Shown: in pieces, positions 5,510 to 60,255 of the stretch | How positions within the stretch are numbered: the stretch's first letter is position 1 | Layout: each line of letters starts with the position of its first letter | Notes under the pieces: model-generated | What the model was told of the DNA's origin: nothing | The model's input: only the letters and a program-made list of their open reading frames with translations | Databases searched by the model: none | NCBI GenBank assembly: GCA_038109055.1 | Contig: JAYNIM010000002.1 | Coordinates: forward strand, 111,759 to 175,758 | From: a bacterium | GTDB lineage: Bacteria; Margulisbacteria; Marinamargulisbacteria; GCA-2716485; JAYNIM01 | DNA length: 64,000 nucleotides | Reading direction: 5' to 3' | Translations under genes and position numbers: made by a program

Positions 5510-6163
5510 CTAATCTGAAAGAGTAATAACAAGTCTATCCTTATAATACCCTCTAAGTAATGCAGAATCTAAAACTGGGACATACGCCCAGAAATTTATT
5601 TTTTTATCCACTGTTGCTTCCTTAACCGTCCCCATTAAAGTACCATCATCCGTAAAAAGCATTACAAGGTCCGAAGTCAATTGCTTGCTCGGATAACTAC
5701 CTACAGCATATAAATAATGAGTCTCAATAGTGGTAGGCAAAACCTCATTTAAACCGGCATCTTGCAACCCCAATCGACCCTCGTTTGTTAATTCAAAAGA
5801 GACATAATACGGTACCTCGGCCCCCTTTCCATAGACCCAATCAGTCGTAGAATGATGGGCGTATTCTTTCCACTGACTCCCATCCCAATACTGCCTCAGC
5901 AAACGGCCAGAATTTTCACTATGGATAGTCACAGAAAACCCCCATGGGAAATTACATGAAACAATAAAAGCAAACAATTTTTGATAAACATCACTGTGAT
6001 TAATCTGACCTATATCCAATCCCCCTTGACTAGAATCTATAGATAAAGAATAGTCTGCTCGTACAGACCCCTTTAAAAGGGCTTCCTTTTCAAGGGTAAT
6101 CGAAAAACTAGTCGAAAAAAAAAGAAAATTTAGCAGAAAAACAAAAAATAAGGAATTTTTCAC
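5510..6163 (-). CDS. Exported pilin paralogue in inverted orientation
   Basis: Signal peptide; NFPWGFSVTIHSENSGRLLRQYWDGSQWKEYA aligns to NNPVGYSIKVESAGNCKLKRKYFDGSAWQEWA of 4671; C-terminal GYYKDRLVITLSD. Confidence 0.65.
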   Translation of the reverse strand: MKNSLFFVFLLNFLFFSTSFSITLEKEALLKGSVRADYSLSIDSSQGGLDIGQINHSDVYQKLFAFIVSCNFPWGFSVTIHSENSGRLLRQYWDGSQWKEYAHHSTTDWVYGKGAEVPYYVSFELTNEGRLGLQDAGLNEVLPTTIETHYLYAVGSYPSKQLTSDLVMLFTDDGTLMGTVKEATVDKKINFWAYVPVLDSALLRGYYKDRLVITLSD

Positions 6164-6203: not shown

Positions 6204-6947
6204 GTGATTATGAAAAATATATTAGGTATTACTATATGTCTTTTACTATTAAGTGTACAAATCCTCGCGACAAATGCATCTCTTAGCAGAAAGGAAATCA
6301 ATATAGATTATAACAATTCAACAAAACTAATCTTAACAAACAAAGCAGACGAAATAAAAGCCTTTGAAATATCTCTATATGAACGTAATATAGATGAAAA
6401 AGGTCAAGACATAAAAGTCGACAGCGATATAGAAAATAATTTTTTAATCATTCCCTCTCAAGTAATCCTCTCTCCATTTGGTGAAGAAACCATCTCAATA
6501 ACCTATATAGGGGATAAAAATATTACAAAAGAAAAAGCCTATCATATACTTATAAAACAAATTGAAATTAATTTCGATGAAAACAATACTGAACTCATAC
6601 AAAGATCTAAAGATTCTTTATATGCAAAACTCACAGTCCTAACAAATTTAATAAAAAACATGTACCTTACTCAAAGTAATTTTGAACCCAAGCTAGAGAT
6701 TATCAATAAAAAAATAAATGACCGAACAATGGAAATTGAAATAAAGAATAGTGGCCAAAAACGCTTAATAATGGGGGGAGACAAGCCAAAACTGTTTTTT
6801 CTACTTAAAGATACAGATAATAACATTTTAAAATTCAGAGCCAAAACAGCCATATTATTACCAAACCAAACCTTTAAAAATATTATTGAAATACCAAAAT
6901 CTGTAAATTTAAAAGATCAAGACATTTCATGGGAATTTTCCCGTTAA
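6204..6947 (+). CDS. Periplasmic pilus chaperone (PapD/CsuC-like); likely start ATG 6210
   Basis: Signal peptide; PSQVILSP..EETISITY, EKAYHILIKQI and IEIKNSG motifs. Confidence 0.75.
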   Translation: MIMKNILGITICLLLLSVQILATNASLSRKEINIDYNNSTKLILTNKADEIKAFEISLYERNIDEKGQDIKVDSDIENNFLIIPSQVILSPFGEETISITYIGDKNITKEKAYHILIKQIEINFDENNTELIQRSKDSLYAKLTVLTNLIKNMYLTQSNFEPKLEIINKKINDRTMEIEIKNSGQKRLIMGGDKPKLFFLLKDTDNNILKFRAKTAILLPNQTFKNIIEIPKSVNLKDQDISWEFSR

Positions 6948-9737
6948 ATTCACATTAAGATTTCTACAACCTTTTTTATCCTACTAATACCAATCTTCAC
7001 ATTTACCTTTCAAACAAAAACATACGCCCAAAACCAAACTCCTCCTCTTACAAATACCCCCCTTACCCCTGTAAATTCAGAAATAAATCAAGCAACAAAT
7101 CAACTCCCCCCCATCCAAACTCAAGAAAAAAATCCCCCTCAAACAAAGACTCAACCAGAAACAACTCAAACCTCCAATCCAGAAACACCTCAAACTTCGA
7201 ATACAGAAACAACTCAAACAAAACCTCCTTCTAAAAACACCGCTCGTCCCTTAACCAAAGAGGATTATTTAAAGATATTTAAAAAAGCATTTGGCAGTAC
7301 CCCAACTATACGTCAAACAAAAGAAATGGCTCACATTTATATCAACAACAGCAAACAAACTCCTCCCGTAAGAATCCTAACTGAAACATTAAACCCAAAC
7401 ATAAAAATTAAACACGAAGACATCATGAAAATTTTAATTAGGGTATTAAAAAAAGACGTTTTTAATCAACTAAACAAAAATTTACCTATAGATGAAGATA
7501 ACATGATAAACACAGAGGATTTAATCGCCTTAGGATTTAAAATAATTGAATCAAAAAAGCTAAACAAAATTAATCTACTAATACCTGAAAACAATTTGAA
7601 AAAAAAAGAAATAGAAATTAAGACCTCCTCTGCTACCTCCGAAACTGCATTAAGAAAAAAAATAGTCACAAAAGGAAAATACAGTAATTATACAAACATA
7701 ACAATCAAGACAAACTCAAACACCCTTGACAATACTGTCTCAAAAAACAATACGATTGCCTTTCAAGGCCTCTGTAATATTGATAATCTAAAATTACGAT
7801 ACTCAATCAAAAACACAGAAGAAAATACTAAATTACAAGGTGAAACACTGGCATTAATATGGGAAGAATTTAACTCATTCAACATTGAAATCGGTTATAT
7901 AAAAAAAAACCTGTCCTTTGCAAATAATATTAATAATACAATAGCTACAGGCATAGAAATTCGTTCAAAAAAACAACCCCAAAACAACCTGATAGATAAA
8001 ACCATCTCTGTTGACCAAGACAGTAACCTGAAACTCTTCATTAACAAAAAACAAATCGCAAACCTTTATGTAACAAAGGGAAGCACTCGCTTAACAAATA
8101 TTCCATTAACGTCGGGATTAAATAAACTAATTATCAAAAGTTTTGATAAAGATGGTAATTTATTATGGGAAAAAAAAAGTTATGAATTTAAGAATAAAAA
8201 TTCTCACTTTAAATGGATAGGCATAGAAAATTACAGCTTTTTTTTAAATTCAACAAATCAAACGAATACATCCCTTATAGGGTTAACTAGTATGTTTAAC
8301 CTAAATACCCCCTACACGCCTATTATGATATACAACAAAATCTATGAAGATAAAACAAATGAATTAAACTATAAATTTAATTTATATGAAAATACGACAT
8401 TTAAAAGTATCCATATAAACAAAAAAAACCTAAAAGTAAACTCAATTAGTTTATCAAGTAATTACCTCTTTGATAAAAAAACACCCTTCGTTAACAGCAT
8501 ATCTATAGGATCTAGCTTTAATAATAGCAACAATCTTGACACAGCTTCAAATACCAAAACATCCGCATTAACATCAACCCTATCCTTAAAAAAATATAAA
8601 GAGTTTAATCAATCCATATCATATAGCCAAAGCATTCGAAACGAAACAACAAACAAAAAATCAATGTCCCTATTTTATACCATTAATAAAGCAGGAAAAA
8701 AAAGAGAAACATTCTCGTACTCGAATAACCTAGGAATTGCTCTAAATAAAGAACCCTCCGAAGCTTTAAGTCTAAGCCTAACCTTACTAAATGAAGTCAA
8801 AATTAAGCAAAAAAATATCACCTATAGTTTATCCTTAAATAATAATAAATTAAAAGCCAACATTAATTTATTTTGGTATTTCTCAAAAGAAACAAAGTTA
8901 GAAACAACTATTTCAACCAAAGAAATACATAATAACTTTATACATAAAGACACTAAAAATAATTTTAGATTTAATGCAAATGCACAAATAGCATCCTTAA
9001 TTAATCTTAATGCAGGCTTTAGACATAATGATAAGAATATCAATACATCTGGAACATTTCGACAAACCCTTGGAAATTCTGATAGACAAGACACCTTATC
9101 ATTATTCACCCCTGTGGGGTCAATATTTTATGATTTTAATAATACAGAAGACAACCACAACTCTTCCTTAACGTTAACAACAGCCATTGGATTTGCAGAT
9201 GGACACTTCGCAGTAACAGACAAGATCAACAATAGTTTCTTAATCGTCAAACAAGATAAAAAAATAAAAAACACCTCTTTAATTGTAAACAATCAAGCAT
9301 TTAGCCTATTTAATACACACATCATTACCAATCTACAAAAAGAAAAAATAAATAACATATCCATTGAACTAAAAACCCCAGAAAGCTTACTCTTTTTAGA
9401 AAAAACAAATTACGATATCCCTATTAAAGAAAACAAAGGTGAAGTCCTTATCATTAATACGCAAGGAACAAATCTTGCAATCATTACTCTAAAAGACACA
9501 AATAAGCAACCATTAAGATACAAATATATCACTTACTATGAAAAAAATAAGCCCGAAAACAAAATTGACATACTATCGTCTAAAACAGGTAAAATACAAC
9601 TCGTTGGTATTAAAAAAAATACAACCTACATCATCGATTCAAACATACAGAAATTAAAACCAATAGAACTATTTATACCTAGAAATGTGAAAGGAATCTA
9701 CAAAGTACCTGAATTAATATTTAAGGAAAAGAAATGA
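6948..9737 (+). CDS. Divergent outer-membrane usher; frame extends 126 codons upstream of the called ATG 7326
   Basis: Frame open from 6948 with a signal-peptide-like stretch ending TYA; NIPLTSGLNKLII plug-like motif; TAIGFADGHFAVTDKINNSFLIV usher C-terminal motif; beta-rich; follows the chaperone. Confidence 0.65.
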   Translation: MHIKISTTFFILLIPIFTFTFQTKTYAQNQTPPLTNTPLTPVNSEINQATNQLPPIQTQEKNPPQTKTQPETTQTSNPETPQTSNTETTQTKPPSKNTARPLTKEDYLKIFKKAFGSTPTIRQTKEMAHIYINNSKQTPPVRILTETLNPNIKIKHEDIMKILIRVLKKDVFNQLNKNLPIDEDNMINTEDLIALGFKIIESKKLNKINLLIPENNLKKKEIEIKTSSATSETALRKKIVTKGKYSNYTNITIKTNSNTLDNTVSKNNTIAFQGLCNIDNLKLRYSIKNTEENTKLQGETLALIWEEFNSFNIEIGYIKKNLSFANNINNTIATGIEIRSKKQPQNNLIDKTISVDQDSNLKLFINKKQIANLYVTKGSTRLTNIPLTSGLNKLIIKSFDKDGNLLWEKKSYEFKNKNSHFKWIGIENYSFFLNSTNQTNTSLIGLTSMFNLNTPYTPIMIYNKIYEDKTNELNYKFNLYENTTFKSIHINKKNLKVNSISLSSNYLFDKKTPFVNSISIGSSFNNSNNLDTASNTKTSALTSTLSLKKYKEFNQSISYSQSIRNETTNKKSMSLFYTINKAGKKRETFSYSNNLGIALNKEPSEALSLSLTLLNEVKIKQKNITYSLSLNNNKLKANINLFWYFSKETKLETTISTKEIHNNFIHKDTKNNFRFNANAQIASLINLNAGFRHNDKNINTSGTFRQTLGNSDRQDTLSLFTPVGSIFYDFNNTEDNHNSSLTLTTAIGFADGHFAVTDKINNSFLIVKQDKKIKNTSLIVNNQAFSLFNTHIITNLQKEKINNISIELKTPESLLFLEKTNYDIPIKENKGEVLIINTQGTNLAIITLKDTNKQPLRYKYITYYEKNKPENKIDILSSKTGKIQLVGIKKNTTYIIDSNIQKLKPIELFIPRNVKGIYKVPELIFKEKK
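7155..7219 (+). repeat. 24-bp tandem repeat, about 2.7 copies, encoding PETTQTSN-like units
   Basis: ccagaaacaactcaaacctccaat / ccagaaacacctcaaacttcgaat / acagaaacaactcaaac. Confidence 0.85.
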
Positions 9738-10540
9738 AATATCTAATACTTATCTCCTGGTTAATTGGAAGTCTCAGCTATGGAACTCTACATCTACACA
9801 TTAAAGATACATTTACAATCGATATCCCGCCAATTAACACCTCTATCACAAAACAAGTGCCTTTATTAATCACGTTTTCTAATATAGAAGAAACCGAAAT
9901 TTTTATCTGTCTCTCTCAAGACAAAAAAAATGATCTCTATTTTCATGATATAAATTCAAATGAATTTAAAGAAAATAAAACAATCAATGAAAAATTAAAC
10001 TTAACCTCCTCATACTCAGCAACCCATATCAATAATACTCACTCATTCCAATACAAGTTACTCAATAATCAAGACACGCCGTTTACATTAAAATCTTTTT
10101 TATTAGCCATAAATAAAGACGATGTCATATCAGGCATCATCACAAAAGATGATATATCTCCAATAAACAGTCATTTCTATGTGAGTATCGATAATATCAA
10201 ACATATTCCCTCCGGAACATACACAGATATTTTCCGAGTGGACTTGTATAAAGGGAGCCTAACAAATAAACTTGACGCAGAACTAATAGAAAGTAAAAGC
10301 ATCAAACTCATATTCAACATCCCAAGCTATACAGAATCAATCATTGAAAAAATCAAAACAACAAAAAACAATCAAACGATATTTATACGCACTAACAGCA
10401 ATGAAAAAATAATAGCTGAATTCAGCTACACTTACAAAAACTCACAAAAATCTATTTTTTTAAATACAGCAAAAGAATCCCATATCATCCAAATACCCCT
10501 CAAAAGTACAGACCCAACTCTCACAATAAAAACACAATAA
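9734..10540 (+). CDS. Exported minor pilin or tip adhesin-like protein
   Basis: Signal peptide; PSGTYTDIFRVDLY pilin motif; ATGA overlap with the usher. Confidence 0.55.
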   Translation: MKYLILISWLIGSLSYGTLHLHIKDTFTIDIPPINTSITKQVPLLITFSNIEETEIFICLSQDKKNDLYFHDINSNEFKENKTINEKLNLTSSYSATHINNTHSFQYKLLNNQDTPFTLKSFLLAINKDDVISGIITKDDISPINSHFYVSIDNIKHIPSGTYTDIFRVDLYKGSLTNKLDAELIESKSIKLIFNIPSYTESIIEKIKTTKNNQTIFIRTNSNEKIIAEFSYTYKNSQKSIFLNTAKESHIIQIPLKSTDPTLTIKTQ

Positions 10541-10620: not shown

Positions 10621-11391
10621 ATGGATCCAACAGTCATTTTTGGTATTATCAGTGGTACCGCTCTATTAATATACGCAATTGGACTAGAAAACGTGATGAC
10701 CATGTTTGTAGATACAAACTCCTTATTAATTGTATTAGGCGGTACATTAGCTGCGACATGTATTCATTTCCCTATGTCACAACTTTCCAAAACAGTTCCT
10801 TGGCTAATGATAACCTTTGCAATGAAAAGAAAAGGCAATAAACATGTTATAGACGAATTTATTGAAGTTGCGACACAATACAAACGCGAAGGCCGAGTTG
10901 GGATGGGGAAGAATATCGACAAAATAAAGGATGGGTTCTTAAGAGATTCCGTTCAATTAATTATAGATAATGTCACCAAAGAAGAAATGCAAGAAATTTT
11001 AGATGCCAACATCAGCTACATGAAACGCCGCCATCAATTAGGCATCGATTTTTTTATGATGGTAGCCACATATTGCCCCAGCTTTGGCTTAGTTGGAACA
11101 TTAATCGGATTAATTGTCATGCTAGCAAAACTAGACGATCCTTCAGCAATTGGCCCCGCAATGGCAGTCGCCTTAATCACCACATTCTACGGTGCCTTAT
11201 TCGCAAACTTTTTATTTATGCCCTTTGCTGGAAGATTAGAAATCTCAAACGAAGAGGAACTATTACAAAAAAACATGCTCAAAGAAGGATTGGTCTGTCT
11301 ACTTGAAGGTCAATCAATTTTCATTATCCGAGAAAAAATGTCCATGGTCCTCTCACAAAAAGATAGAAAAAAAATGAATAAAAAAACATAA
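10621..11391 (+). CDS. motA: Stator A subunit (MotA/PomA family), module 1
   Basis: SLLIVLGGTLAA, PSFGLVGTLIGL, DPSAIGPAMAVALITTFYG motifs. Confidence 0.95.
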   Translation: MDPTVIFGIISGTALLIYAIGLENVMTMFVDTNSLLIVLGGTLAATCIHFPMSQLSKTVPWLMITFAMKRKGNKHVIDEFIEVATQYKREGRVGMGKNIDKIKDGFLRDSVQLIIDNVTKEEMQEILDANISYMKRRHQLGIDFFMMVATYCPSFGLVGTLIGLIVMLAKLDDPSAIGPAMAVALITTFYGALFANFLFMPFAGRLEISNEEELLQKNMLKEGLVCLLEGQSIFIIREKMSMVLSQKDRKKMNKKT

Positions 11392-11392
11392 C

Positions 11393-12202
11393 ATGGCTGA
11401 AGGACCTAATTTTTTTGTATCTTGGAGTGATTTAGTAACATTACTATTAGTATTTTTTATCTATTTATTCTCAATTTCATCCATAGACGTCGTAAAATTT
11501 TTAGAAATAAAAAAAAGTATTTGGGGAAGGTACATGGAATACAAACCTGATCAACGCCGCATAAAAGAATCACAAAAAAACAGTGAATTTAAATTAAATG
11601 AACAAAGAAAACGTGCATTATCAGGACCAACAGAAAGATTCACCGTACTAAAGGACTGGAAAAAAACACGAGAGCACATCGAAACATCCACCAGTATACG
11701 AATTGAAACCTTGAAAAAAATAAAGGAACAACAAGAACAACTCATGCTACTAAAAAAAGACTTAGAGAATATGATTGAAAAACAAAAATTAAAATCTCTA
11801 TTTACAGTCGAATATTCTGATATGGAATTAACATTAAGCTTTGGAGACGCTCTATTCTTCAATACAGGTTCTGCATCCATAAAACAAACTGGCGAATCTA
11901 TCAATATCATACTCGCAAACTTATTTAAACGAAACAACAGCGATATCTTTATTGAAGGACATACCGACAATATCCCAATCTACAACAAAAAATACCCCTC
12001 TAACTGGGAACTTTCAAGCGCAAGAGCCTCAGCAGTAGTACGGTCATTAATAGATAAAGGAATAGACCCAGAACGTTTCGCTGCCATAGGCTTTGGCGAA
12101 TTTCAACCGATTGTATCGAACGACAATGAACTTAATCGATCCAAAAATCGTCGAGTAAAAATAATACTAAAACCAAAAAACATACTACCTGAAAAAAAAT
12201 GA
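11393..12202 (+). CDS. motB: Stator B subunit (MotB/PomB family), module 1
   Basis: TM segment WSDLVTLLLVFF with the conserved Asp; OmpA-like domain IEGHTDN, NWELSSARA, NRRV. Confidence 0.95.
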   Translation: MAEGPNFFVSWSDLVTLLLVFFIYLFSISSIDVVKFLEIKKSIWGRYMEYKPDQRRIKESQKNSEFKLNEQRKRALSGPTERFTVLKDWKKTREHIETSTSIRIETLKKIKEQQEQLMLLKKDLENMIEKQKLKSLFTVEYSDMELTLSFGDALFFNTGSASIKQTGESINIILANLFKRNNSDIFIEGHTDNIPIYNKKYPSNWELSSARASAVVRSLIDKGIDPERFAAIGFGEFQPIVSNDNELNRSKNRRVKIILKPKNILPEKK

Positions 12203-12260
12203 TTAAAACCAAATAATGATGGGAATAACAAAGAATACAAAGTAAATATCAAAAACAAAC

Positions 12261-13712
12261 ATGGAAATATTAGACGATAATAATAATATAAACAAAGAAC
12301 CAACCAACACCACGCCTAACAATAGTGGCGATAAAGAAACTATACCTCCTTCTCAAACAAACAAAATAGTCAAAGATCTTAGCATACAACAATCTAAATT
12401 AAAGAAAATAAAAAATCTTCTAAAAACTTGGAGCGCACATCAAAGAAAGAATATTATATGGGGATTTATTATCGTAAGTGCTCTTAGCGTACTCATAGTA
12501 AACATCCTTCAAGACAAAAAAATTACATTATCAAATTTGGAGAGGGCTGATGAAAGACTCTTAATACAGCGACAACGTCTATTAGAAACACAAATCAAAA
12601 ACGAAATGTCTCATAGCCTAGAAAAAATGTTCGGTCCAAACAATTTCCATGTTGGGGTTATTGCCTTCTTCAGTCTTGTAAATGAAAAAAACAAAGATAT
12701 CTCATACAACCCAAATATAGTCACTATTAACCATGAAATGTACGACAGCTCCCATGAAACAGCTCACCCAGGTCATGAAAAATTATTAGCAATAGCAAGT
12801 CAAAACAACAGACAAAAAATTGAAGAAAATACAATAAATGAACTTCCTGGCATATTTCAAAATATTAACAGATTACCTCAACAAAGTAACCTACCCCAAC
12901 GAATAAATACAACAGAACCTAACACAGAAAACACAAGCTTATTAGATCAAGCAACTGACATAGAACTACCTGGCTTTGAAAATATAAATTTCCAATCTCT
13001 AACAACCCCGTACACATCAGAAACAACCCAAGCCCCCCAATTAATGGAAGAAGGAATAGAAGAAACACATGACGAAAAACAATCCATTCATAAGTTATTC
13101 CAAAATCCAAAAAAAATAGTTAAAACAGAAAAAAAGAAAAATAAAATTATTATGAATCAGACTATATCTATCTCAGAACAACCAAAAGTAAAATTTGAAA
13201 ATTTATATATCTCAGTAGTCATCAATAAAACCATCACAGACAAATTTAACATAAAAGAAAAAGATTTAAGTCGATTTTTAGAAGTCATGGGAGGTATTAA
13301 TCAAACACGTGGAGATAGGTTTAATCTCTCAATTATTCCTTTCAGGGAACAAGTCATAGATATGAGAAGTGCAGGAATTAAAACAAGAAAATTTTTCAAT
13401 AACATTCCTATTTGGGTCTATATCCCTTTATTTGTAATGATCCCATTAGGAATTTTCTTAAAACCCCCCCTATTAAGTCTACTAAAAAATAAAAAGGCAA
13501 AAAAAGAAGAACAAGAAAAAGTAATCCTCTTAGAAAAACAACTTCAAGAAGAAAAACAAATACAAGAGGAAAAAGAATGGAATGAAAAAAGAACCGAAAT
13601 ATTAGAGATGGCACAAAAAAACCCCGAAACCATGGCAAATATTTTATTAGACTGGACTGAACAAGAACTTTCTAATAAAGAAGAAACCCCAGAAACTGAA
13701 AAAGGAGACTAA
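12261..13712 (+). CDS. FliF-like M-ring protein with RBM3/beta-collar region only
   Basis: TM1; LEKMFGPNNFHVGV; LYISVVIN; GGINQTRGDRFNLSIIPF; TM2; C-terminal AQKNPETMANILLDW FliG-binding helix. Confidence 0.8.
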   Translation: MEILDDNNNINKEPTNTTPNNSGDKETIPPSQTNKIVKDLSIQQSKLKKIKNLLKTWSAHQRKNIIWGFIIVSALSVLIVNILQDKKITLSNLERADERLLIQRQRLLETQIKNEMSHSLEKMFGPNNFHVGVIAFFSLVNEKNKDISYNPNIVTINHEMYDSSHETAHPGHEKLLAIASQNNRQKIEENTINELPGIFQNINRLPQQSNLPQRINTTEPNTENTSLLDQATDIELPGFENINFQSLTTPYTSETTQAPQLMEEGIEETHDEKQSIHKLFQNPKKIVKTEKKKNKIIMNQTISISEQPKVKFENLYISVVINKTITDKFNIKEKDLSRFLEVMGGINQTRGDRFNLSIIPFREQVIDMRSAGIKTRKFFNNIPIWVYIPLFVMIPLGIFLKPPLLSLLKNKKAKKEEQEKVILLEKQLQEEKQIQEEKEWNEKRTEILEMAQKNPETMANILLDWTEQELSNKEETPETEKGD

Positions 13713-13713
13713 A

Positions 13714-14805
13714 GTGGCAAAGAAAAAAGAAATAGTTAAAGAGAAAGAGCAAGAAACAGAAACACAAAGCCAACAATCAAGCTTAGAAAAAGTAGCCATG
13801 TTACTCCTCTATCTTGAAGCAATTTCGCCACAAACAACCAAAGCAATCTACGAACATATAGGAGAAGAAGTCTCCCAAAAAATATTAAACACTATCGCAA
13901 GTTTAGGGAACATAAATAAAACTAAACTAAAACCCATTATAAACGAAGCTCACAATATTTTAGTGGCACAAAACAATATTATTGGAGGACGAAACCTGTC
14001 AGGTAAAATAATTAAAACAATTTTTGGTGATCAAATAAAGGATAACGTAGAAGAAAATAAAAAAAGTAAAGGAAAAGCCTTCGCTTTTTTACAAGACTTT
14101 TCTAATGAAAAATTAATATTATTTTTCGAAGATAATTCCGAAGCAATGGCTGCATTTCTGTTTTCGTTACTATCACAAGACAAAGCCGCAAGTCTCATCC
14201 CATTATTAAAGCAAGAAAAAGCACAACGTATCATGGAAAAGGCCCTTCATTTAAAAATAAATAACATCCCTATTTTATATGAATTAGAAGAAGAATTAAA
14301 AAAAGAATTTTCAAAAACTGAAACAGGTATTCAATTAAAACCAAAAAAACAAATTCAACATTTAACCCAAGTGTTAGAAATGCTAGAAGAAAATCAACGC
14401 ACGGCAATTTTAGAAGAAATGAAAAAAACAAACAAAGAAATTGCAGAACAAATTGAACAAAACATTTTTACATTCCCAGATTTAATAAACTGCAGCGAAG
14501 AAGACATAGCGCAAATTGTAGCAGACATAAAAAATGTAAAAGCATTGGCCTTTGCCACCCATACCTGTGACGAAAAATTAAAAGAAAAATTACTAAATAA
14601 TATCTCTGCACGACAAAAAGAAATTTTAGATGACGAACTAAAAACAATGCCTGAAAACGTAAAAGAAAAAGATATTACAAGCTCACAAAAAGAAATTTTA
14701 AGCATCGCAAGAAAATTAGAAAAAGAAGAAAAAATAGAACCTTTAAGCAAAGGATCAGAAGGAAAAGATAGCAAAGAAAAAAAGGACAAAAGTAAAAAAG
14801 GATAA
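13714..14805 (+). CDS. fliG: FliG-like rotor protein
   Basis: LEKVAMLLLYL, IGGRNLS, IFTFPDL (MFxF), NISARQKEILDDE torque helix. Confidence 0.85.
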   Translation: MAKKKEIVKEKEQETETQSQQSSLEKVAMLLLYLEAISPQTTKAIYEHIGEEVSQKILNTIASLGNINKTKLKPIINEAHNILVAQNNIIGGRNLSGKIIKTIFGDQIKDNVEENKKSKGKAFAFLQDFSNEKLILFFEDNSEAMAAFLFSLLSQDKAASLIPLLKQEKAQRIMEKALHLKINNIPILYELEEELKKEFSKTETGIQLKPKKQIQHLTQVLEMLEENQRTAILEEMKKTNKEIAEQIEQNIFTFPDLINCSEEDIAQIVADIKNVKALAFATHTCDEKLKEKLLNNISARQKEILDDELKTMPENVKEKDITSSQKEILSIARKLEKEEKIEPLSKGSEGKDSKEKKDKSKKG

Positions 14806-14826
14806 AAAAATAAAAGGAACAGATCT

Positions 14827-15501
14827 ATGAAAGACACTAAAGAAGAACAATTAACTGCAACTGAAATATATCGGAATTTAGCATTATACACAGCTGACTT
14901 CATATCCATTAATTTTGCGATACCTTTTGATTTAACCAATATTGAAGAAAAAAAAGTAACCTATGAAGAATTTGTCAAACAAGCAGGTTCACTCAGCTAC
15001 ACTAGCCTATTTAATATTTGTGGCCTCCCTTTTTTAGGGTGCATCAATCAAAAAATAATAATCAATCTAAATAACATAATGCTAGGAACCCCAGAAGAAA
15101 TGAAAGAAAGCAAAAAAGAAAACGAAGACGAAGAAGAAAATCTATTAACAGTTGGCCAAAAATTTGTAGGTAAAACACTAAGTACCTGTATAACCAACAA
15201 CATGAAACAACACTATCCATGCAATTTTTTAAAGTCACAAGAAAAATTATCATTATTCAAAATATTTTTTAACAACGATAAAGTCTTAACATTTAACATG
15301 ACAGCAAAAATAAACGACGAAGATATGGGAACATTATCATTTTGCCACATAGAAAATTTTTTCGATTTACTCCCGAATAAATTAGAACAAGAACGGTCTA
15401 GAGAAACAAACACTGAATCCAATGAAAATACAAAAGATGAAGATGAAACAAATACTGAATCCAATATCAATATAAAAGATGAAGATGAAACAAAAAAATA
15501 A
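14827..15501 (+). CDS. FliM-like middle (CheC-like) domain protein
   Basis: VTYEEFV, IINLNNIMLG and LLTVGQK resemble the FliM middle domain; follows fliG. Confidence 0.6.
   Translation: MKDTKEEQLTATEIYRNLALYTADFISINFAIPFDLTNIEEKKVTYEEFVKQAGSLSYTSLFNICGLPFLGCINQKIIINLNNIMLGTPEEMKESKKENEDEEENLLTVGQKFVGKTLSTCITNNMKQHYPCNFLKSQEKLSLFKIFFNNDKVLTFNMTAKINDEDMGTLSFCHIENFFDLLPNKLEQERSRETNTESNENTKDEDETNTESNINIKDEDETKK
15403..15494 (+). repeat. 42-bp tandem duplication, about 2.2 copies
   Basis: Encodes ETNTESNENTKDED / ETNTESNINIKDED / ETK. Confidence 0.9.
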
Positions 15502-16510
15502 ATTCTATTTAATAATAGCACTACTAACTATACATATATATCTTGTCAGCCCCTTTAGCTGGGCCTCCTCAAATTCAACAAGTATGATTAGCCTACCTAA
15601 TTCAATCAACAAATACAACAGCCCTTTAGAATATGGGATGGGTCTAATTTTTGGCAATGAAAACGATAAAATCACCTACGAACCAGAATGCTTTGCTCGA
15701 ATAATCCTCTTAGAAAAAATAATTTTAAATACCAACATCAGTGATAATAATTTAAAACAAAGCATCCACATAAGCCTCCTATCATACAAAGATATCTCCA
15801 AACCATATACACACAATTTTGGGTTCGGCATCAACAACAGCGGTTGGTACCCTGAACTAGATAACCTTTATAACAGCGTTATAGGCGCATACATAAACTA
15901 CAACCTTGAATACGAATCAATGATTTTTCACCTAGGTCTAGCAAAAAATAAAAACACCCATCAAGAAAAAAACCTCCTCTTATTTGGGATCGAACATTTA
16001 ACAGAGTTTGGAAATGTCGTGCTTGAATGGGACGGAACTCGAGCAAATTTCGGATTCTCCGTAGATCTTATCAAAAACAAAGCCTATATTGGTATTACCC
16101 CCAATCAAAACAAAACCTCACTAAAAAACCAACTATTAACCATAGGATATTCCTGGAAATCTGACCATCTATTTGAAATAGACAAAAAATCTAACAAATA
16201 CAAATCGCAAAAACGAAACTCAAGAAAAAGTTTGAGCATAGGTGCTGCAAGTATTCAAAAAACATTAGAACGCATGGAACGTGGGATGGATCTATACACC
16301 AGAGGATACTACCCATTAGCAAAACTCGAATTAGAAAAAGTAATAGAAATATTTCCAACACCCACAGCTTACAGTCGTCTAGGCTCCATACATTACAAGC
16401 TTAAAGAGTATGACAAAGCATTAGAAAATTGGAATAAAGCATTACAATTAAACCCATCAGACAACAAAGTAAAAGAAATGATAGATTTTGTAAACAAACT
16501 AAAAAAATAA
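15479..16510 (+). CDS. Exported YjbH-like beta-strand protein with C-terminal TPRs
   Basis: Signal peptide; amphipathic strands, LEWDGTRANFG; TPR AYSRLGSIHYKLKEYDKALENWNKALQLNP. Confidence 0.6.
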   Translation: MKMKQKNKFYLIIALLTIHIYLVSPFSWASSNSTSMISLPNSINKYNSPLEYGMGLIFGNENDKITYEPECFARIILLEKIILNTNISDNNLKQSIHISLLSYKDISKPYTHNFGFGINNSGWYPELDNLYNSVIGAYINYNLEYESMIFHLGLAKNKNTHQEKNLLLFGIEHLTEFGNVVLEWDGTRANFGFSVDLIKNKAYIGITPNQNKTSLKNQLLTIGYSWKSDHLFEIDKKSNKYKSQKRNSRKSLSIGAASIQKTLERMERGMDLYTRGYYPLAKLELEKVIEIFPTPTAYSRLGSIHYKLKEYDKALENWNKALQLNPSDNKVKEMIDFVNKLKK

Positions 16511-16511
16511 A

Positions 16512-17732
16512 ATGAAAAAAATAATCGTCATCTGTTTGATCATATTACAAATAACCATTAACAAAGAACTATTAGCTGCAGCCTTTGGGCCAGCAAAGTC
16601 TCTAATCAATGTCCCTATCGCAGAATACTTCATACCCGGAGATCTAGAGTTCTCTACCAATGCTGGGTTTGGATCCATGCAAAATTTAGAATTCGATTTC
16701 AAGTTTCAATATAGCCTCACAAAAAAAATTAATATAGGGGCAACAATCATCAATTATCATCAAATGGTATTCAATGCACAAACAACCTTTGTAACATTAA
16801 GTGACCCCTTTCCTATCACAATTTCTGCCGGCATACTAAACTTATCGTCTAAACTAGATTTGAGTGATTGGGATAATGAAACAGCACAAAAAATACATAA
16901 TTTAGGTCACTTTATTGTATGCAGCTTACCTAAAAAAGCCTATACCTTACACATCGGCTTAGGCAAAAAAAAATATCGAACAGAATCAATCAACTCAACA
17001 CTAGAAGAAGCCTCAAGTGCATTTATAGGCACCTTATTTTTTGGAATAGAAAAATCAATCAAGAATGGATCATTAATGGCAGAATTCGATGGTAGTTATA
17101 TGAACGTTGGCTATAGAAAAAAGTTAACAAAAAAAACCACAGGAAGTGCAGCATTAACAGAGTTTGGAAATACTGGCAAAGATGCCCCTGTACGATTTCT
17201 ATCCTTCAATATCAAAACAGCTAAAAACATCTTTGAGGCTTACAAAGAAGAAGTAGAGTATGTACAGAAAAACCTAACAATCATCGAAGACATCTCATTA
17301 AACTTAAAAGAAACCGAAAAAAAACTAAAAAAAGAATTAATTAACACACAAAAAATTAAAGAAGCCTTATTAAAAAAAGTAAATGAAAATCCTTCAGAAA
17401 AAAAAATAAATAGAAAAGACCCTCTTCAAATGTACTCAAACAACTACATTCAAGCCTACAAACATTACGAAGACTCATTTAATAGTTTTAATCAACAAAA
17501 TTACTTAAGTGTTTTAGAATCACTGACTAAAGCAATACAAGCAGCCCCTGATGTTCCCATATTTTACAGACAGCGTGGCACAGTGTATTACATAATAAAA
17601 CAAGAAGAAAATGCTCTCCTTGACTGGACAACTGCCTATGAACTAAACCCCAGAGACCCAGAACTATTAAAGTTACCAAAATCAGTGTTAACTGAAATCA
17701 TTTCACGCGTAAAAACCTATCCACTAGAGTGA
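16512..17732 (+). CDS. Exported YjbH-like beta-barrel with coiled coil and TPRs
   Basis: Signal peptide; SLINVPIAE and AEFDGSYMNVGYR motifs; TPR FYRQRGTVYY...AYELNP. Confidence 0.6.
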   Translation: MKKIIVICLIILQITINKELLAAAFGPAKSLINVPIAEYFIPGDLEFSTNAGFGSMQNLEFDFKFQYSLTKKINIGATIINYHQMVFNAQTTFVTLSDPFPITISAGILNLSSKLDLSDWDNETAQKIHNLGHFIVCSLPKKAYTLHIGLGKKKYRTESINSTLEEASSAFIGTLFFGIEKSIKNGSLMAEFDGSYMNVGYRKKLTKKTTGSAALTEFGNTGKDAPVRFLSFNIKTAKNIFEAYKEEVEYVQKNLTIIEDISLNLKETEKKLKKELINTQKIKEALLKKVNENPSEKKINRKDPLQMYSNNYIQAYKHYEDSFNSFNQQNYLSVLESLTKAIQAAPDVPIFYRQRGTVYYIIKQEENALLDWTTAYELNPRDPELLKLPKSVLTEIISRVKTYPLE

Positions 17733-36252: not shown

Positions 36253-37434
36253 ATGCTTAATAAAAAATATTTATTTCTAATAATATGCTTTCTTTATTGC
36301 CAAAATACTTTATTTAGTATGGGCGAGCCGCCTCAAAGAATAGAAAATAAGTTCAAAAAAAAAGATACCGTAAAAAATAAACAGTTATTCAAAAAGAAAG
36401 ACAAAGACACCTCAACAGAAAAAAAAATATCATCCAAACAACCTATATCTTCAAATACAATTAGCCAAAACAATTCCTCATCGACGGTAAAAGACAGCAA
36501 AATATTATTACCTCCAAACATCAAACAAACCAGTTACAATGTCACCTCAGAAGAATCCATCGAAAGTATACGAAAAAAATTAAACCTAAGCATACAAAGA
36601 AGACAATTTGAACGAATAAAAAAATTACTAGAAAAAATGCCTAAATCAATATGGAACAATAAAGAAAAAAATATAGAAAAAGAGCTCCTATTATTTGAAG
36701 AAATAGAAAATGAAGAAAAAAGATTCAATAATCAATTTAAAAAAGACACCAATACTAATCAGAAATTAACGAACAAAATCAATTTTTTATACACAGAAGC
36801 GAAAGGAAAAATATTAGAAGGAAATAATAACATCAGTAAAGATCTATTGATACATATTTTATTTCTAGACAAGAGTCATTTCAAAGCAAGAAAATTATTA
36901 AACAAAGGGTTAAAATTACAAGCAAACGATTATATAGTCGAAAACATAGAGCTAAAATATTGGCGAGAGTCCGAAATAAATTACTACAGCGGTAATTACA
37001 AAAAAGCCATAGAAAATTTAAACGCATTAACAATCTTTGAAAGCAACAACGCCACCATTTATGAACGCTTAGGATCAAATTACTACAATATATCGTTAAT
37101 TAATGAAGCAATAAATTCCTGGACAATTGCAATGGGTCTAGACCCATCAAAAAATCATTTAAAAAAGGTCATTGAAAAAGCTAAAAATTATCAAAAAGAA
37201 CAAGAAAAGGAACTTAAAAACTTTCAACAAACAAATGAGGAAAGCAACAAAAAAGAGAGTCTTCCAGACATAGAAGAAACACAATTATTAAGTGTGTTTT
37301 ACAATCGTGCAGACGCATTCAAATATAAAAATAAACTACAAAAAGAAAATCCAAAAAGAACTCTTTATCTGTATAACAAAAACGATGGATCTATAGAAGT
37401 AAGAATAAAAAAAATTAAAAACAGGAGCAACTAA
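36253..37434 (+). CDS. Exported TPR protein with a SPOR-like C-terminal domain, module 2
   Basis: Signal peptide; TPR IYERLGSNYY...AMGLDP; LLSVFYNRADAFKYKNKL...GSIEVRI resembles SPOR. Confidence 0.6.
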   Translation: MLNKKYLFLIICFLYCQNTLFSMGEPPQRIENKFKKKDTVKNKQLFKKKDKDTSTEKKISSKQPISSNTISQNNSSSTVKDSKILLPPNIKQTSYNVTSEESIESIRKKLNLSIQRRQFERIKKLLEKMPKSIWNNKEKNIEKELLLFEEIENEEKRFNNQFKKDTNTNQKLTNKINFLYTEAKGKILEGNNNISKDLLIHILFLDKSHFKARKLLNKGLKLQANDYIVENIELKYWRESEINYYSGNYKKAIENLNALTIFESNNATIYERLGSNYYNISLINEAINSWTIAMGLDPSKNHLKKVIEKAKNYQKEQEKELKNFQQTNEESNKKESLPDIEETQLLSVFYNRADAFKYKNKLQKENPKRTLYLYNKNDGSIEVRIKKIKNRSN

Positions 37435-38861
37435 TGCTAAAAAAAACCTCCTACGCCATAGGCATATACGCACTAGTACTAGTCACAAACCTATGCGCTA
37501 TAAACCAATATCAAATTGAACAATTTTATACAGAAATATCTCAAAAGACACTTGACACTCTATTTGGAAAAAATACATTTATCGTCAAAGCAAACATAGA
37601 ATTAACAAAATCAAAGTACCAAGTAACCTATACAAAACAATCTCAAATCAAAGAAGCAAAACAAACATCATCTCAAACAGAAAAAGTATTACTAATGCCA
37701 GGATACCCTGCATTAAAAAATATAAGTCCAGACAATTTAAACACACTTCCATATGATTCTGTCACAACTTTAATAGAGCCAAAAATAAAACGAACCATCT
37801 TAACAATATTTGCCAGCAAAGAAATGACTCGCCTACAAGTAAAAAAAATTAACCCTATCCTTCAAGAACTTCTAAATTTAGACTTAACTACAGATAAAAT
37901 AAACATAAAATACAAAAGCTTTTTCGATCTAAAAAAAGCAAAGCCCCAGCCAATCACCATTAAAAACTCAAGGGAAACATTCACATCTCCAGATATAGTA
38001 ATCAATTTTCTATTACTATGTACCGCAATCGCGTTTCTATTATCCTACTTATTTAAAAACAAAAAAGAAAGCTCAACTACTCATCAAAATCAGCAACCTA
38101 GTATACATGTAAACCCAAGTTTAGAATTACCCGAAGGATTAAAAACCAGAGATGCAATCACTGAATCACAACAAACATCCAAAGAAAAGAAAAATTATTT
38201 TGATTTCATCAATACAGAAAATATCTCGCTTTTAATATCCCTACTTAAAAAAGAAAGAGTATCCTTCGACTACGTTGTCATGATTTTGTCGTTTATTCCT
38301 ACTCCCCTAATTAATCAAATATTAGACAGCTACTCGCTAAAAGAACAAAGTATCATCATTGAAAAACTAAAAGAAGAAAAACAAGTAAAAGCTGAATTGC
38401 TTAAAAAACTAGAGACCAAAATACAAACATACATAGAAACAAGCATCGGGGGCCCTCATTTATTAGAAAAAATATTTAAACTAAACAAAATATCAAGTAA
38501 CAAAAATATTCTGGATTATTTAGAAAAAAACAATCCAAGTTTATACAAAGACACGCGACCTTACATACGTCTCATAAAAGATTTAGATCTATTAGAAGAA
38601 GAAAATTTAAAAGAAATTTTATCATCAATAAATCTAGAAACATTATCCAAGGGACTAACACAAAGTTCTGAAGAACTAATTGAGAAAATCAAAGGTTATT
38701 TACCAGAAAATGGCCAACAAATGCTGATTGAGTATATTGCAAGCAATCAAGCTAATCCAAATACAGAAGAAATAGACTTAGCTCAAAAAGCCATTATAAA
38801 AACAATAAGAAAATTAGAAAAAACTAAAAAATTAGACCTAGCAAATAGAACACAAAAATAG
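37434..38861 (+). CDS. FliF(RBM3)-FliG(middle and C domains) fusion protein
   Basis: Signal peptide; LDTLFGKNTFIVKANIEL, MPGYP, IKRTILTIF, DKINIKYKSF; TM; then YFDFI, IGGPHLL, LKEILSSINLETLSKGL, EEIDLAQKAIIKTIRKLE. Confidence 0.75.
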   Translation: MLKKTSYAIGIYALVLVTNLCAINQYQIEQFYTEISQKTLDTLFGKNTFIVKANIELTKSKYQVTYTKQSQIKEAKQTSSQTEKVLLMPGYPALKNISPDNLNTLPYDSVTTLIEPKIKRTILTIFASKEMTRLQVKKINPILQELLNLDLTTDKINIKYKSFFDLKKAKPQPITIKNSRETFTSPDIVINFLLLCTAIAFLLSYLFKNKKESSTTHQNQQPSIHVNPSLELPEGLKTRDAITESQQTSKEKKNYFDFINTENISLLISLLKKERVSFDYVVMILSFIPTPLINQILDSYSLKEQSIIIEKLKEEKQVKAELLKKLETKIQTYIETSIGGPHLLEKIFKLNKISSNKNILDYLEKNNPSLYKDTRPYIRLIKDLDLLEEENLKEILSSINLETLSKGLTQSSEELIEKIKGYLPENGQQMLIEYIASNQANPNTEEIDLAQKAIIKTIRKLEKTKKLDLANRTQK

Positions 38862-38870
38862 GAGGATAAA

Positions 38871-39635
38871 ATGGACATAATATCAATTATAGGGTTCATA
38901 GTAGCACTAAGCGCAATATATTTTGGAGCACCAGATATTAGACATGATTTAGCTGTTTATCTTGATTCAGATAGTTTCATATTTGTATTTTTCGGCTCAA
39001 TAGGTTCAATGATCATCGCATCAAGTAAAAGTGAGCTAAAACATTTAGGAACTCTGTTATCACATACCTTTCGTAGAAAAAAAACAATACTTCCCAAAAA
39101 AGCTGTTGAAATCATGGTAAAGCTATCAAAAGATTCACAACAAATGAGTAAACAAGATTTACCAAATGAATCAAAAATCTACAACAACCCATTTTTAAAC
39201 AATGGAATTGCTATGATCGCATCAGGCCTTGATGAGAACTTTATTAATACCACTCTAAATAACGACTTGCAAGAATCAGAAAAAAGACACGATATCTTAA
39301 TCAATAAAGTACGATCATTAGGAGCCTACGCCACAATGTTCGGGATGGCGGGAACAGTCATTGGAGTCATTCAAGTTCTTAGAGACGTAAAAGACATAAA
39401 TAACATCATAAGCGGTCTATCATTAGCTCTATTGACCACGCTCTACGGATTATTTCTTTCCTCTATATTTTATCTTCCTCTATCCAAAAAACTTAAAAAT
39501 AATAGTGAAAAAGAAGTATTAACAAAATTAATTATAAAAGAAGGAATATTAGGAATTGCCAGAAAGGAGATCCCTGTAAAAATAAACTTTTACCTAAAAT
39601 CATTTTTAGATCAACACGACAAGAAAAATGCGTAA
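38871..39635 (+). CDS. motA: Stator A subunit (MotA family), module 2
   Basis: SFIFVFFGS, NPFLNNGI, FGMAGTVIGV, LALLTTLYG; SD AGGAGG. Confidence 0.9.
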   Translation: MDIISIIGFIVALSAIYFGAPDIRHDLAVYLDSDSFIFVFFGSIGSMIIASSKSELKHLGTLLSHTFRRKKTILPKKAVEIMVKLSKDSQQMSKQDLPNESKIYNNPFLNNGIAMIASGLDENFINTTLNNDLQESEKRHDILINKVRSLGAYATMFGMAGTVIGVIQVLRDVKDINNIISGLSLALLTTLYGLFLSSIFYLPLSKKLKNNSEKEVLTKLIIKEGILGIARKEIPVKINFYLKSFLDQHDKKNA

Positions 39636-40293
39636 CAAAGAACAAGAAGAACAAGAAGACGACACAGCAATAGCCCAAACAGTTTACGGAGACCTTGTAA
39701 CATTTTTAATGGTCTTATTCTTATTACTATTCATATTCTCACAACAGATAAAAAATGAAGGCTTTTTTATTGTAAACAAAAAGGACAAACGGGGAGGAAG
39801 TACAGAACAAAAAACTCAAAGTAACCTAGCAATAAAAAATCCCTTAAATACAGCCGTACAAAACTTCATTAAAAAAGAACAGCTAGAAAAGGTATTGCAC
39901 ATTGTCGAAAATGAAGAGAGTATAAAATTGATTCTAGAAACCCCTTTATTATTCAATAGTGGAAAATCCGAATTAACAAACAACGCAATTAAAGTTCTCA
40001 ACAAGCTTGCAAAAATTTTAAAAAATGTAGAAAACGACATCATTATAGAAGGACATACCGACAACGTACCCATACACAATGAAGCCTATAATTCCAATTG
40101 GGAACTATCCTTTTTTAGAGCCTTTTCAGTCACACAATACTTAATAAATAAACACCAGTTTAAACCAACACAATTATCATGCCTTGGCTATGGTGAGTAC
40201 CGCCCTTTGGTACCAAACACAAACAAAGAAAACAAAGCCAAAAATAGAAGAATAGAAATTAATATAATCAGAATAAAACCAACAAACACCTAA
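39628..40293 (+). CDS. motB: Stator B subunit (MotB family), module 2
   Basis: YGDLVTFLMVLF; EGHTDNVPI, SNWELS..RA, GYGEYRP, KNRRIEI. Confidence 0.93.
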   Translation: MRNKEQEEQEDDTAIAQTVYGDLVTFLMVLFLLLFIFSQQIKNEGFFIVNKKDKRGGSTEQKTQSNLAIKNPLNTAVQNFIKKEQLEKVLHIVENEESIKLILETPLLFNSGKSELTNNAIKVLNKLAKILKNVENDIIIEGHTDNVPIHNEAYNSNWELSFFRAFSVTQYLINKHQFKPTQLSCLGYGEYRPLVPNTNKENKAKNRRIEINIIRIKPTNT

Positions 40294-40569: not shown

Positions 40570-41694
40570 TTACATCTGTGAAGAAAATAAAGGAATAAAC
40601 CTTAAATTAGTTACGAATTGTTCATCTAAAAAATAGTTATTTTGCTCATCAAAACATATTAACTTCTTATATATTGGCGACGTTCTATTCAAAGAAATAC
40701 GAAATAAATCACGTACTGAATTTGAAGAAATATTACTTTGTTTAAAAAATCTTATAACCTCATTATACGTAACTTTATCCAAACCAGTTTCAACAATTTT
40801 ACTATAGAGAAATTGGGTAAATCGTGCTTGATTTTGGGTAAGTGTATAGGTTTTTCCCATATATTTAATCATCGAGAAATCAGAGCGTGCAACATGCATA
40901 GATTTCTTGACCAAAGGATCTAAATAAACAAACCATTTTTCCAATAAACAGATATTTGCTTTTATACGATATGAAACAATTTTATACATATCCTTTTCAT
41001 AATCCATCTTATATTGAGGCGTGTAAAAAAAATGATGAAATTTAATAAAACCAAGATATTCTAACGACAATACGGTATCCAACACTCGACAATATTTTGC
41101 ATCTTCGTCTTCAAGCATCTCTTGCGTAAAATCATAAAAATCAAATAGAAAGTTTTTCCCAAAACGATCATACATTTTCTCAAATTGTTTAATCACAAAC
41201 GATTCTTGTCGCTTGTATTTAAAGAAAAGCTGATCTTTAGAAAATAAATCATCATTAATAAAACGCTCTAAATAAGAGACATACTGTTTTTTAACAACTT
41301 GTTGATCTGCTACCCTCAAAAGAATATATTTTTCAAAACGACCTGACTCTGTATGCGACTTCTCTATTTCACCTAATGAAATAATCTTAGTTGCCGCAAT
41401 ACGCTTTACATCAGTAAATGAAAGTACATTATCAGAATATAATTTATCTAAAAAGGGGACAGTTTCGCCATAATGCTCAACATGTGCTCGAACAAAAGTA
41501 TCTAAAAATAATTGAGGATCGTGCACATGACTACGATAATCCCATTTGAAATGATAGCGGATACCAAAGGACTCCAAAAGTGATAAAAAACCATCCTTTT
41601 CAAAAACATCATCAGAATAGGCATAATAATCAATACACCCATTTAAACTAAGTGCAGCCAAACGAAATAAATTTCGTTGCTCGATATACGTCAT
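40570..41694 (-). CDS. Hypothetical protein with a putative C-terminal winged-HTH
   Basis: 374-aa ORF; SDFSMIKYMGKTYTLTQNQARF...SVRDLFR. Confidence 0.55.
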   Translation of the reverse strand: MTYIEQRNLFRLAALSLNGCIDYYAYSDDVFEKDGFLSLLESFGIRYHFKWDYRSHVHDPQLFLDTFVRAHVEHYGETVPFLDKLYSDNVLSFTDVKRIAATKIISLGEIEKSHTESGRFEKYILLRVADQQVVKKQYVSYLERFINDDLFSKDQLFFKYKRQESFVIKQFEKMYDRFGKNFLFDFYDFTQEMLEDEDAKYCRVLDTVLSLEYLGFIKFHHFFYTPQYKMDYEKDMYKIVSYRIKANICLLEKWFVYLDPLVKKSMHVARSDFSMIKYMGKTYTLTQNQARFTQFLYSKIVETGLDKVTYNEVIRFFKQSNISSNSVRDLFRISLNRTSPIYKKLICFDEQNNYFLDEQFVTNLRFIPLFSSQM

Positions 41695-42195
41695 CTATTC
41701 AAGTGTTAATTTACTTAAGGCTTCCAATTCTTCGTCCAATTTTTTATCTGTATTGATTCTAAACTCAGCAGCCTGTTCCTTCTGAAAGTGCCTCATCATC
41801 ACATGCAAATGTTTAATTTGTTCATCTTTTCGACGAAGTTGATCACCGAGTTCTGAAAATTGCTGATTCTTTGCACGAAGTTCTTCATCTTTACAGTGTA
41901 ATTGAGTCTTCAAAAAAGAAATGTTCTCCATCAAAAGCTCGACATCATAAGACACCTTATTCACACCAGAACCATGCTGATCTAACCTCGTAGCCAACTG
42001 ATCAACAGATTTATAATATTTCAGCAAATCCACTCTAGAAAGGACCAAAACACGGCGACCATTACGGACATCATCATGATATCTTATGGGCCTTGTTTTA
42101 ACAGCCTTTCTTAAGGTATGAATAGACTTTCCAGTCAAACATGAGCCCTCCTCTAATGTAATAAATTCAGACTCTCGTATATCTTTATGTTCCAT
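41695..42195 (-). CDS. HTH plus coiled-coil DNA-binding protein (DUF536-like)
   Basis: ITLEEGSCLTGKSIHTLRKAVK HTH; FLKTQL..KDEQIKHL coiled coil; SD GAGGA. Confidence 0.6.
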   Translation of the reverse strand: MEHKDIRESEFITLEEGSCLTGKSIHTLRKAVKTRPIRYHDDVRNGRRVLVLSRVDLLKYYKSVDQLATRLDQHGSGVNKVSYDVELLMENISFLKTQLHCKDEELRAKNQQFSELGDQLRRKDEQIKHLHVMMRHFQKEQAAEFRINTDKKLDEELEALSKLTLE

Positions 42196-59805: not shown

Positions 59806-60255
59806 ATGAAAAAAAAATTATTAATAACATTATTTATATACACACTTTGCTTTGGAAATATATTTGCAGAATCAATTGGCTACATAAATATGGAAGTAAT
59901 CCTTAGAGAATACAAAGAAGTAACAAAGTTTCAAGAAAGTTTGAAGAAAAAAGCCCAAGCCTATCAAAAGAATTTTGAGGAAAAACAAAAAAAATTAGAA
60001 AAAGCAAAAAACAAAGGGAAGAGTGACGAAGAGATTCAAAAGTTAATCAGCAAGATTGAAGAAGAACTTTACCCTCAAAAGCAAGAGATAATAACATTAG
60101 AAGCAGCCTTTAAAAATAGACTCATTGGAGAAGTAACAAGCACAGCTAAAATAATTGCCAAAAATTACGGTGTTGACGTTGTTCTAGATAAAAACGCAGT
60201 TTTATCTGGTGGCTTTGATTTAACACAATTTACATTAAACAAATTAAATGAATAA
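59806..60255 (+). CDS. OmpH/Skp chaperone
   Basis: IGYINME, coiled coil, VVLDK..V..GGFDLT. Confidence 0.88.
   Translation: MKKKLLITLFIYTLCFGNIFAESIGYINMEVILREYKEVTKFQESLKKKAQAYQKNFEEKQKKLEKAKNKGKSDEEIQKLISKIEEELYPQKQEIITLEAAFKNRLIGEVTSTAKIIAKNYGVDVVLDKNAVLSGGFDLTQFTLNKLNE

Follow-up and report, generated by a model that had tools for sequence, protein, structure and literature searches.

The window analyzed here is a stretch of 64,000 nucleotides (nt) on contig JAYNIM010000002.1 from the genome of an uncultured, aquatic member of the Margulisbacteria, and positions 10621-17732 of it hold a compact operon of flagellar motor genes. We confirmed seven open reading frames (ORFs) running in the same direction, with intergenic gaps of 1, 58, 1, 21, -23 and 1 nt. 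The tight packing described in the original prediction, which was made from the DNA letters, is thus borne out, with a single 23-nt overlap, and so are its gene identities (MotA, MotB, a minimal FliF, FliG, a FliM middle domain and two barrel/TPR proteins) by Pfam, sequence profiles and structural models. Below, G numbers denote genomes (G000 is the source genome, most likely of the class Ca. Marinamargulisbacteria, 1.82 Mb and 93% complete; the others are relatives), L numbers denote loci and C numbers denote contigs. The genes of the operon are:

10621..11391, + strand: MotA, a PomA/MotP-like stator subunit (PF01618, E 1e-26; PDB MotA/PomA, E 1e-40)
11393..12202, + strand: MotB, carrying the ion-binding Asp13, a plug and an OmpA-like domain for wall binding (PF13677 and PF00691)
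12261..13712, + strand: FliF' (483 aa), a first transmembrane segment, RBM3 with beta-collar and LPG loop, a second transmembrane segment and a FliG-binding tail (profile, model and Foldseek)
13714..14805, + strand: FliG, full length with torque helix (PF14842, PF14841 and PF01706, all above the Pfam cut-offs)
14827..15501, + strand: FliM' (224 aa), a stand-alone FliM middle domain (Pfam matches of relatives, profile)
15479..16510, + strand: BarA (343 aa), signal peptide, predicted beta-barrel and C-terminal TPR (TPR Pfam matches; hydrophobic N terminus)
16512..17732, + strand: BarB (406 aa), signal peptide, YjbH-like barrel of ~12 strands, helix at 240-292 and TPR (AlphaFold model, pLDDT 77)

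By its domains, the stator is of the flagellar type. MotA matches PF01618 above the Pfam cut-off, and its top NCBIfam match, under the cut-offs, is MotP/PomA. Mapped by colinearity with PomA, MotA Thr160, Thr187 and Thr188 correspond to PomA Thr158, Thr185 and Thr186, three residues that have been tied to Na+ use (PMC10374538), and the stator is probably Na+ driven in the source organism; Thr187 is retained in just 6 of 13 type 1 rows, so that the Na+ signature varies among relatives. Both MotB domains, PF13677 and PF00691, score above the Pfam cut-offs, and Asp13 is invariant in 18/18 aligned rows, including E. coli MotB. The pair shows the plug, OmpA-like domain and ion-binding Asp that mark flagellar-type (FIT) stators, a class treated as specialized for flagellar rotation (PMC12505986).

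FliF' is only weakly recognized by itself (PF08345, E 0.0013). Of 13 relatives in the alignment, however, 11 match this family at an E value of 0.1 or less. The profile of these 13 proteins aligns with residues 231-558 of Salmonella FliF only (E 2e-18), with RBM1 and RBM2 absent, and FliF' identity is 14-23%. The structural model (pLDDT 67) consists of a helix, a long beta-hairpin collar, RBM3, a second transmembrane helix and a C-terminal helix; transmembrane segments lie at 62-85 and 381-402, and FliF rings make up all 18 Foldseek matches listed at an E value of 0.001 or less. The best conserved FliF' motif, Leu236-Pro237-Gly238, is present in at least 90% of 26 rows and falls on the collar loop of Salmonella FliF in the profile alignment. 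In flagella torque is passed on through binding of these loops to the rod (PMC13626733, PMC11739650), and in Salmonella RBM2 encloses the export gate (PMC11739650). Since it has neither RBM1 nor RBM2, FliF' would offer no seat for an export gate.

FliG carries Arg300 in at least 90% of 18 rows, aligned to the torque-helix Arg of E. coli. FliM' alone gave zero Pfam matches; 14 of 23 relatives match FliM (PF02154) at an E value of 0.1 or less, and FliM middle domains of known structure are matched by the profile (E 3e-12). Both the CheY-binding N terminus and the SpoA domain are missing from it, and a family of short (~160- to 250-aa) FliM'-like proteins outranks full-length FliM in searches. 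The module lacks the marks of a chemotaxis-switched C-ring: FliM' is a middle domain only, CheW was not found in G000 (0/1), and CheR and methyl-accepting chemotaxis proteins (MCPs) gave zero matches.

The BarB model comprises a barrel, a 53-residue helix and TPRs, and its Foldseek matches are the barrels of OmpG, invasin and FapF. The N-terminal domain is closest to YjbH clusters (ESM Atlas YjbH, 0.94), although a direct Pfam scan of BarB returned no YjbH match. From YjbH-like outer-membrane barrels (PF06082), BarB differs by the long helix, the TPRs and the linkage to motor genes. BarA is a BarB paralogue by profile, and its barrel is predicted from that relationship. The TPR partners of all three module types in G000, described below, share an RLGS-x-YY motif, and in one relative (G063, L225:2737-5304) a single 855-aa chain joins SLH, TPR, FliF' and FliG, with the same TPR as the barrel-TPR partners. 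Elsewhere in the window (60248-60919), a lone small barrel akin to the BarB N terminus lies 3' of an Omp85 gene.

The original prediction held that the 64 kb carried no fliE/H/I, flhAB, fliPQR, flg, fliN, flagellin or che gene. Among the ORFs scanned, with those below 150 aa mostly outside the scan, this stands for export, rod, hook, flagellin and che genes; a second fliF/fliG-motAB module at 36253-40293 had been overlooked. G000 carries three modules in all, the operon (type 1) and two further types:

36253..37434, + strand: type 3, exported TPR protein with a small C-terminal domain, SPOR-like only weakly
37434..38861, + strand: type 3, natural FliF'-FliG(M,C) fusion (PF01706)
38871..40293, + strand: type 3, MotA and MotB (PF01618; PF13677 and PF00691)
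G000 C1:38152-43247 (L042:5153-10248): type 2 module with fliF', fliG, motA, motB, fliM' and a single barrel-TPR gene; FliG is fast evolving

For the type 3 TPR protein we did not accept a SPOR domain, as only one of the seven C termini tested gave a match, which was weak and below the cut-off. The type 3 fusion is conserved in 18 aligned rows with an LPGYP collar motif and was found at 31 loci, and the type 3 module is conserved across the class. FliF'-FliG fusions also arose in type 1. At L207, L223 and L153, another FliG(M,C) gene and a gene for an Ig-repeat protein of 1700-2200 aa lie downstream of the type 3 fusion, and in flagellated relatives (L227, L228, L222) receiver-domain (CheY-like) genes lie in or beside fusion-type modules or TPR-motAB clusters. 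Downstream of the type 3 module, two minus-strand ORFs without an informative Pfam match lie between motB and uvrA (40570-42195), possibly a small mobile insert.

Linkage of the module is kept in relatives. At 22 loci picked by FliG alone, the genes found within ~7 kb were FliM' in 21, FliF' in 16 and MotA in 8, and 18 loci had at least one barrel-TPR gene there, 15 of the 22 having two barrels; several of the misses are contig ends, the profiles were built from the same loci, kin are not independent, and 13 loci chosen by other module genes are excluded from these counts. FliM' occurs in 33 of 132 genomes of the phylum, four of these being full-length FliM, and in 23 of 46 genomes of the class. 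Judged by sequence, conservation of the module extends across the phylum. Few matches came from word-indexed protein searches, which showed no linked module outside the lineage, a kind of blank that carries little weight; a metagenome scan with FliG gave no match and a viral scan gave one partial MotA.

In the FliG tree (55 rows, LG+G4, rooted on E. coli alone, with one long branch flagged), module types 1 and 2 fall into a single clade (100/97) that includes the copies from flagellated relatives, and canonical flagellar FliGs are set apart (100/95). Types 1 and 2 also group mostly together in the MotA tree (100/99). Three type-3-linked MotAs fall within the type 1/2 clade, indicating that stators have been swapped between modules; strict one-stator-per-rotor coevolution was ruled out on these grounds, as the labels need 14 changes. 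Six loci in the flagellated relatives G052 and G058-G063 carry a type 1 module, four of them with motAB as part of the operon; canonical fliF-fliG operons also occur in these lineages, and family f32 has several flagellin-family genes. Conservation across the phylum, a FliG clade of its own and its presence beside a complete flagellum in some relatives argue that the module is not a decayed flagellum.

The source genome also encodes a filament-less secretion basal body, in three clusters:

C1:510916-521624 (L039): secretion-body gene cluster; fliE, fliF, fliG, flgB/C/F/G, flgA/H/I and fliK lie on C1
C2:188306-199379 (L038): secretion-body gene cluster
C3:112277-114944 (L041): secretion-body gene cluster; fliH/I/J lie on C3

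The genes flhA, flhB, fliP/Q/R, fliN and a FliM-like gene lie 13-21 kb beyond the window, with flhA 13 kb from its end. FlgB was assigned by position, with zero Pfam matches. Export apparatus, rod and L/P rings (FlgH, FlgI) are therefore all present, the first two being parts expected of a bacterial flagellum. In addition to the chemotaxis proteins mentioned above, flagellin/FlgL, FlgD (0/1), FlgK and FliD were not found in G000, and a search with E. coli FlgE matched rod-sized ORFs only. The original prediction of a motor with no filament agrees with the flagellin counts (PF00669), which are 0/1 in G000, 1/41 in relatives, on a 2-kb contig, and 0/18 in near-complete genomes, and FlgK scored over the cut-off in 0/55. 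Across the class, FlhA was found in 38 of 41 genomes and the basal-body FliF in 51 of 55. No flagellin filament, no hook with cap and junction, and no RBM1-RBM2 FliF in the same rotor as a torque-bearing FliG was found, and by these three marks the module does not count as a flagellum.

The basal body and the module have lost opposite parts. The basal-body FliG consists of the N and M domains and an acidic tail. A profile match was obtained for 20 of 30 class loci, and the 19 besides that of G000 end by column 203 of 345, versus columns 325-344 for module FliGs in the same profile. The basal-body FliF, which keeps RBM1/2 and its own RBM3 and is paired with this truncated FliG, has its collar reduced to a stub of 11-13 residues in 30/30 class loci, versus 77-109 residues in 11 canonical FliFs. 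As far as sequence can tell, the basal body retains export and loses torque input and output, and the operon retains the torque parts and loses the gate seat. Two RBM1/2 FliFs were found in 10/10 flagellated genomes checked. FlgB, FlgC and FlgF (L039:10806-11674 and 16218-17024) have, by eye, hydrophobic signal-peptide-like N termini, unusual for rod proteins, and further FlgF-like genes lie at C1:261928 and C8:72661.

The original prediction had staked itself on there being no complete flagellar set elsewhere that relies on the fliF, fliG and motAB of the operon. The whole-genome check found an incomplete set with its own fliF and fliG. The genome also has an export apparatus, rod and L/P rings whose FliF and FliG lack exactly the parts that the operon keeps, and we therefore regard the operon motor as likely, not certainly, self-contained, as the original prediction had described it.

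The presence of these parts and domain losses is plain from the sequence, and the composition is well supported. We infer that the operon encodes a separate, rod-less, ion-driven ring motor in which the collar loop takes hold of TPRs on outer-membrane barrels, a reading to which we give an even chance. Going by known structures of FliF, an S-ring and collar would be built from FliF' and would enclose no export gate, and FliG and FliM' would form a short C-ring without CheY input, for which we propose one fixed direction of rotation. MotA5B2, held to the wall by MotB, would drive this ring by way of the FliG torque helix. The TPRs of an even-stranded barrel would lie in the periplasm, where the LPG collar loop could bind those of BarA and BarB in place of a rod, and we propose that the barrels would thereby be dragged around in the outer membrane; the load could, speculatively, be a surface adhesin or a pilus. 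That torque may pass to the barrel-TPR proteins is suggested by gene linkage, conserved motifs and one natural fusion. On a broader view, to which we give slightly less than an even chance, Margulisbacteria would keep the flagellar basal body as two machines, a non-rotating secretion system and rod-less rotary motors with a barrel-TPR drive shaft that move surface structures.

Several observations weigh against the rod-less motor with a barrel-TPR output. The acidic torque-interface residue of MotA is Gly in the operon copy, in a protein otherwise colinear with solved MotA/PomA structures in the PDB profile comparison, and Glu in 6 of 13 type 1 rows. The FliM GGxG motif is degenerate in the FliM' of the operon. 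The TPR-FliF'-FliG fusion occurs in one genome only, its parts being two separate genes in four close relatives. TPR proteins of known motors, MotX and FlcA, which are named in a table of PMC13277936, scaffold stators and do not receive output. SLH wall-binding domains are inserted in the collar of two type 1 FliF'-FliG fusions (L060:5794-8271, L062:7509-9983) and stand at the N terminus of the L225 fusion, and they argue against free rotation in those rotors.

These SLH domains fit an anchored ring, and the motor might instead pull or sense load in the manner of Tol-Pal, tensioning or remodeling the envelope through barrel-TPR tethers from a wall-tied ring. Three type 3 loci (L192, L193, L195) point the same way, with a MotB that lacks the OmpA domain and, in L195, has LysM instead, as do the weak SPOR signal and the altered MotA charges; the L195 module lies within a secretion-gene cluster. 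We nevertheless consider this unlikely for the operon, whose FliF', like 13 stand-alone FliF' rows, has zero SLH matches among the matches listed, and in which the torque helix and complete stator are retained. The complementary losses, which are exact, raise another alternative, in which the secretion body has this module as its detached engine, with FliF' and full-length FliG joining the collarless FliF ring to turn the rod within the L/P rings, and the TPRs acting as scaffolds. A joint machine is made possible by these losses together with the facts that the module was never seen without a collarless basal body in the phylum and that type 3 modules lie within or beside secretion clusters in G091, G025 and G040; the rod, FlgH and FlgI are also retained. 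The secretion body, however, persists without any MotA in family f12 (3/3) and across most other families (4 of 69), and it is equipped with an RBM3, a FliG and a FliM of its own. Gaps in the torque track would presumably result from a mixed ring, and three modules with differing envelope partners would serve one secretion body, so that we hold this arrangement to be rather unlikely.

The motor could also rotate, or aid extrusion of, the chaperone-usher pilus encoded upstream, which would replace the filament. The pilus genes are co-directional with the operon, alternate with genes of the motor in G032 and G047 and adjoin them in G009 and G011 (5 genomes, 4 families in all), but the chaperone is found in 0/6 f32 genomes, with the module present in 5 of these six, and in 2/3 f12 genomes, from which the module is absent; neither of the two other wide loci viewed (G040, G044) shows a pilus link. 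We consider this explanation improbable. That the genes are remnants of a lost flagellum is more improbable still. Fast divergence of FliF', the patchy presence of FliM' in the class and the chance that filament genes of the incomplete G000 assembly were simply unassembled would all suit it, but the operon is tight and intact, its catalytic residues are conserved, it has its own clade and coexists with complete flagella, and near-complete relatives also lack flagellin; the idea is largely refuted.

Compared with the flagellar motor core (FliF MS-ring, FliG/FliM/FliN C-ring and MotAB/PomAB), the module is homologous in stator, S-ring and collar, FliG torque helix and FliM middle domain. It differs in lacking RBM1/RBM2, FliN, the CheY site and rod genes in the operon, and in having barrel-TPR partners and three paralogous copies. 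The filament-less basal body of Buchnera resembles the G000 secretion body, with ring, rod and export genes but no flagellin; Buchnera lost motA and motB (PMC8109811), whereas in G000 separate modules preserve the motor parts, and the collar and the torque domain are what the basal body has lost.

Ion-powered work on proteins of the envelope or the outer membrane, as proposed for the module, is known from ExbBD, TolQR, AglRQS and ZorAB (PMC12505986). These systems are without FliF/FliG rotors, and the module stator has the flagellar-class plug and OmpA-type domain; the rotor and the stator class together place the module outside the Exb, Tol, Agl and Zor motors. None of the dedicated partners (TonB, TolA, Glt, GldK/N, ZorC-E) is among the seven operon genes. 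GldLM likewise performs ion-driven work on envelope or outer-membrane proteins, also without such rotors. An RBM3-with-collar ring outside flagella is known in SpoIIIAG of the Firmicutes sporulation channel, which has no FliG or stator; the Foldseek match of FliF' to it (5wc3) is weak (E 1.8).

The annotation table of 'Ruthmannia eludens' has adjacent fliG-motA-motB and export genes, with no flagellin in its 21 'flagell' rows and one row for FlgE (PMC6784892), and the main text of PMC13277936 does not mention the phylum. No prior description of the module surfaced in the literature searched, which lay mostly outside subscription journals and covered 12 of the 29 supplements of PMC6349859. The module is real, conserved and apparently undescribed. 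A FliF/FliG rotor is known only from machines that center on a type III export gate and rod. Here rotor and stator are conserved as a set that has no gate-holding domains and occurs in multiple copies, even beside complete flagella, which argues that this engine has another job; likely it acts on the cell envelope by pushing and does not turn a propeller. If this is true, no earlier flagellar rotor would be known to work without an axial rod, and the system would offer a living model of a motor module able to exist apart from type III export.

The genes upstream of the operon form an archaic chaperone-usher cluster:

5510..6163, - strand: divergent pilin-like gene of the same cluster (aligns with pilin-like genes of the G032 locus; zero Pfam matches)
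6204..10540, + strand: chaperone, usher and SCPU-type pilin, 80 nt 5' of motA (relatives match PapD_N and Usher)

The chaperone profile had no match in the PDB, and a promoter scan was at chance level (45 observed versus 52 expected). The sequencing runs listed gave no RNA entry. The cluster is a possible accessory of the motor operon, of uncertain membership. Adhesin-like neighbors recur and none is universal: 5 genomes have chaperone-usher genes, 2 have PKD-repeat proteins upstream, and in 3 genomes Ig-repeat proteins follow type 3. The open frame of the usher begins near 6950, ~125 codons ahead of the called ATG.

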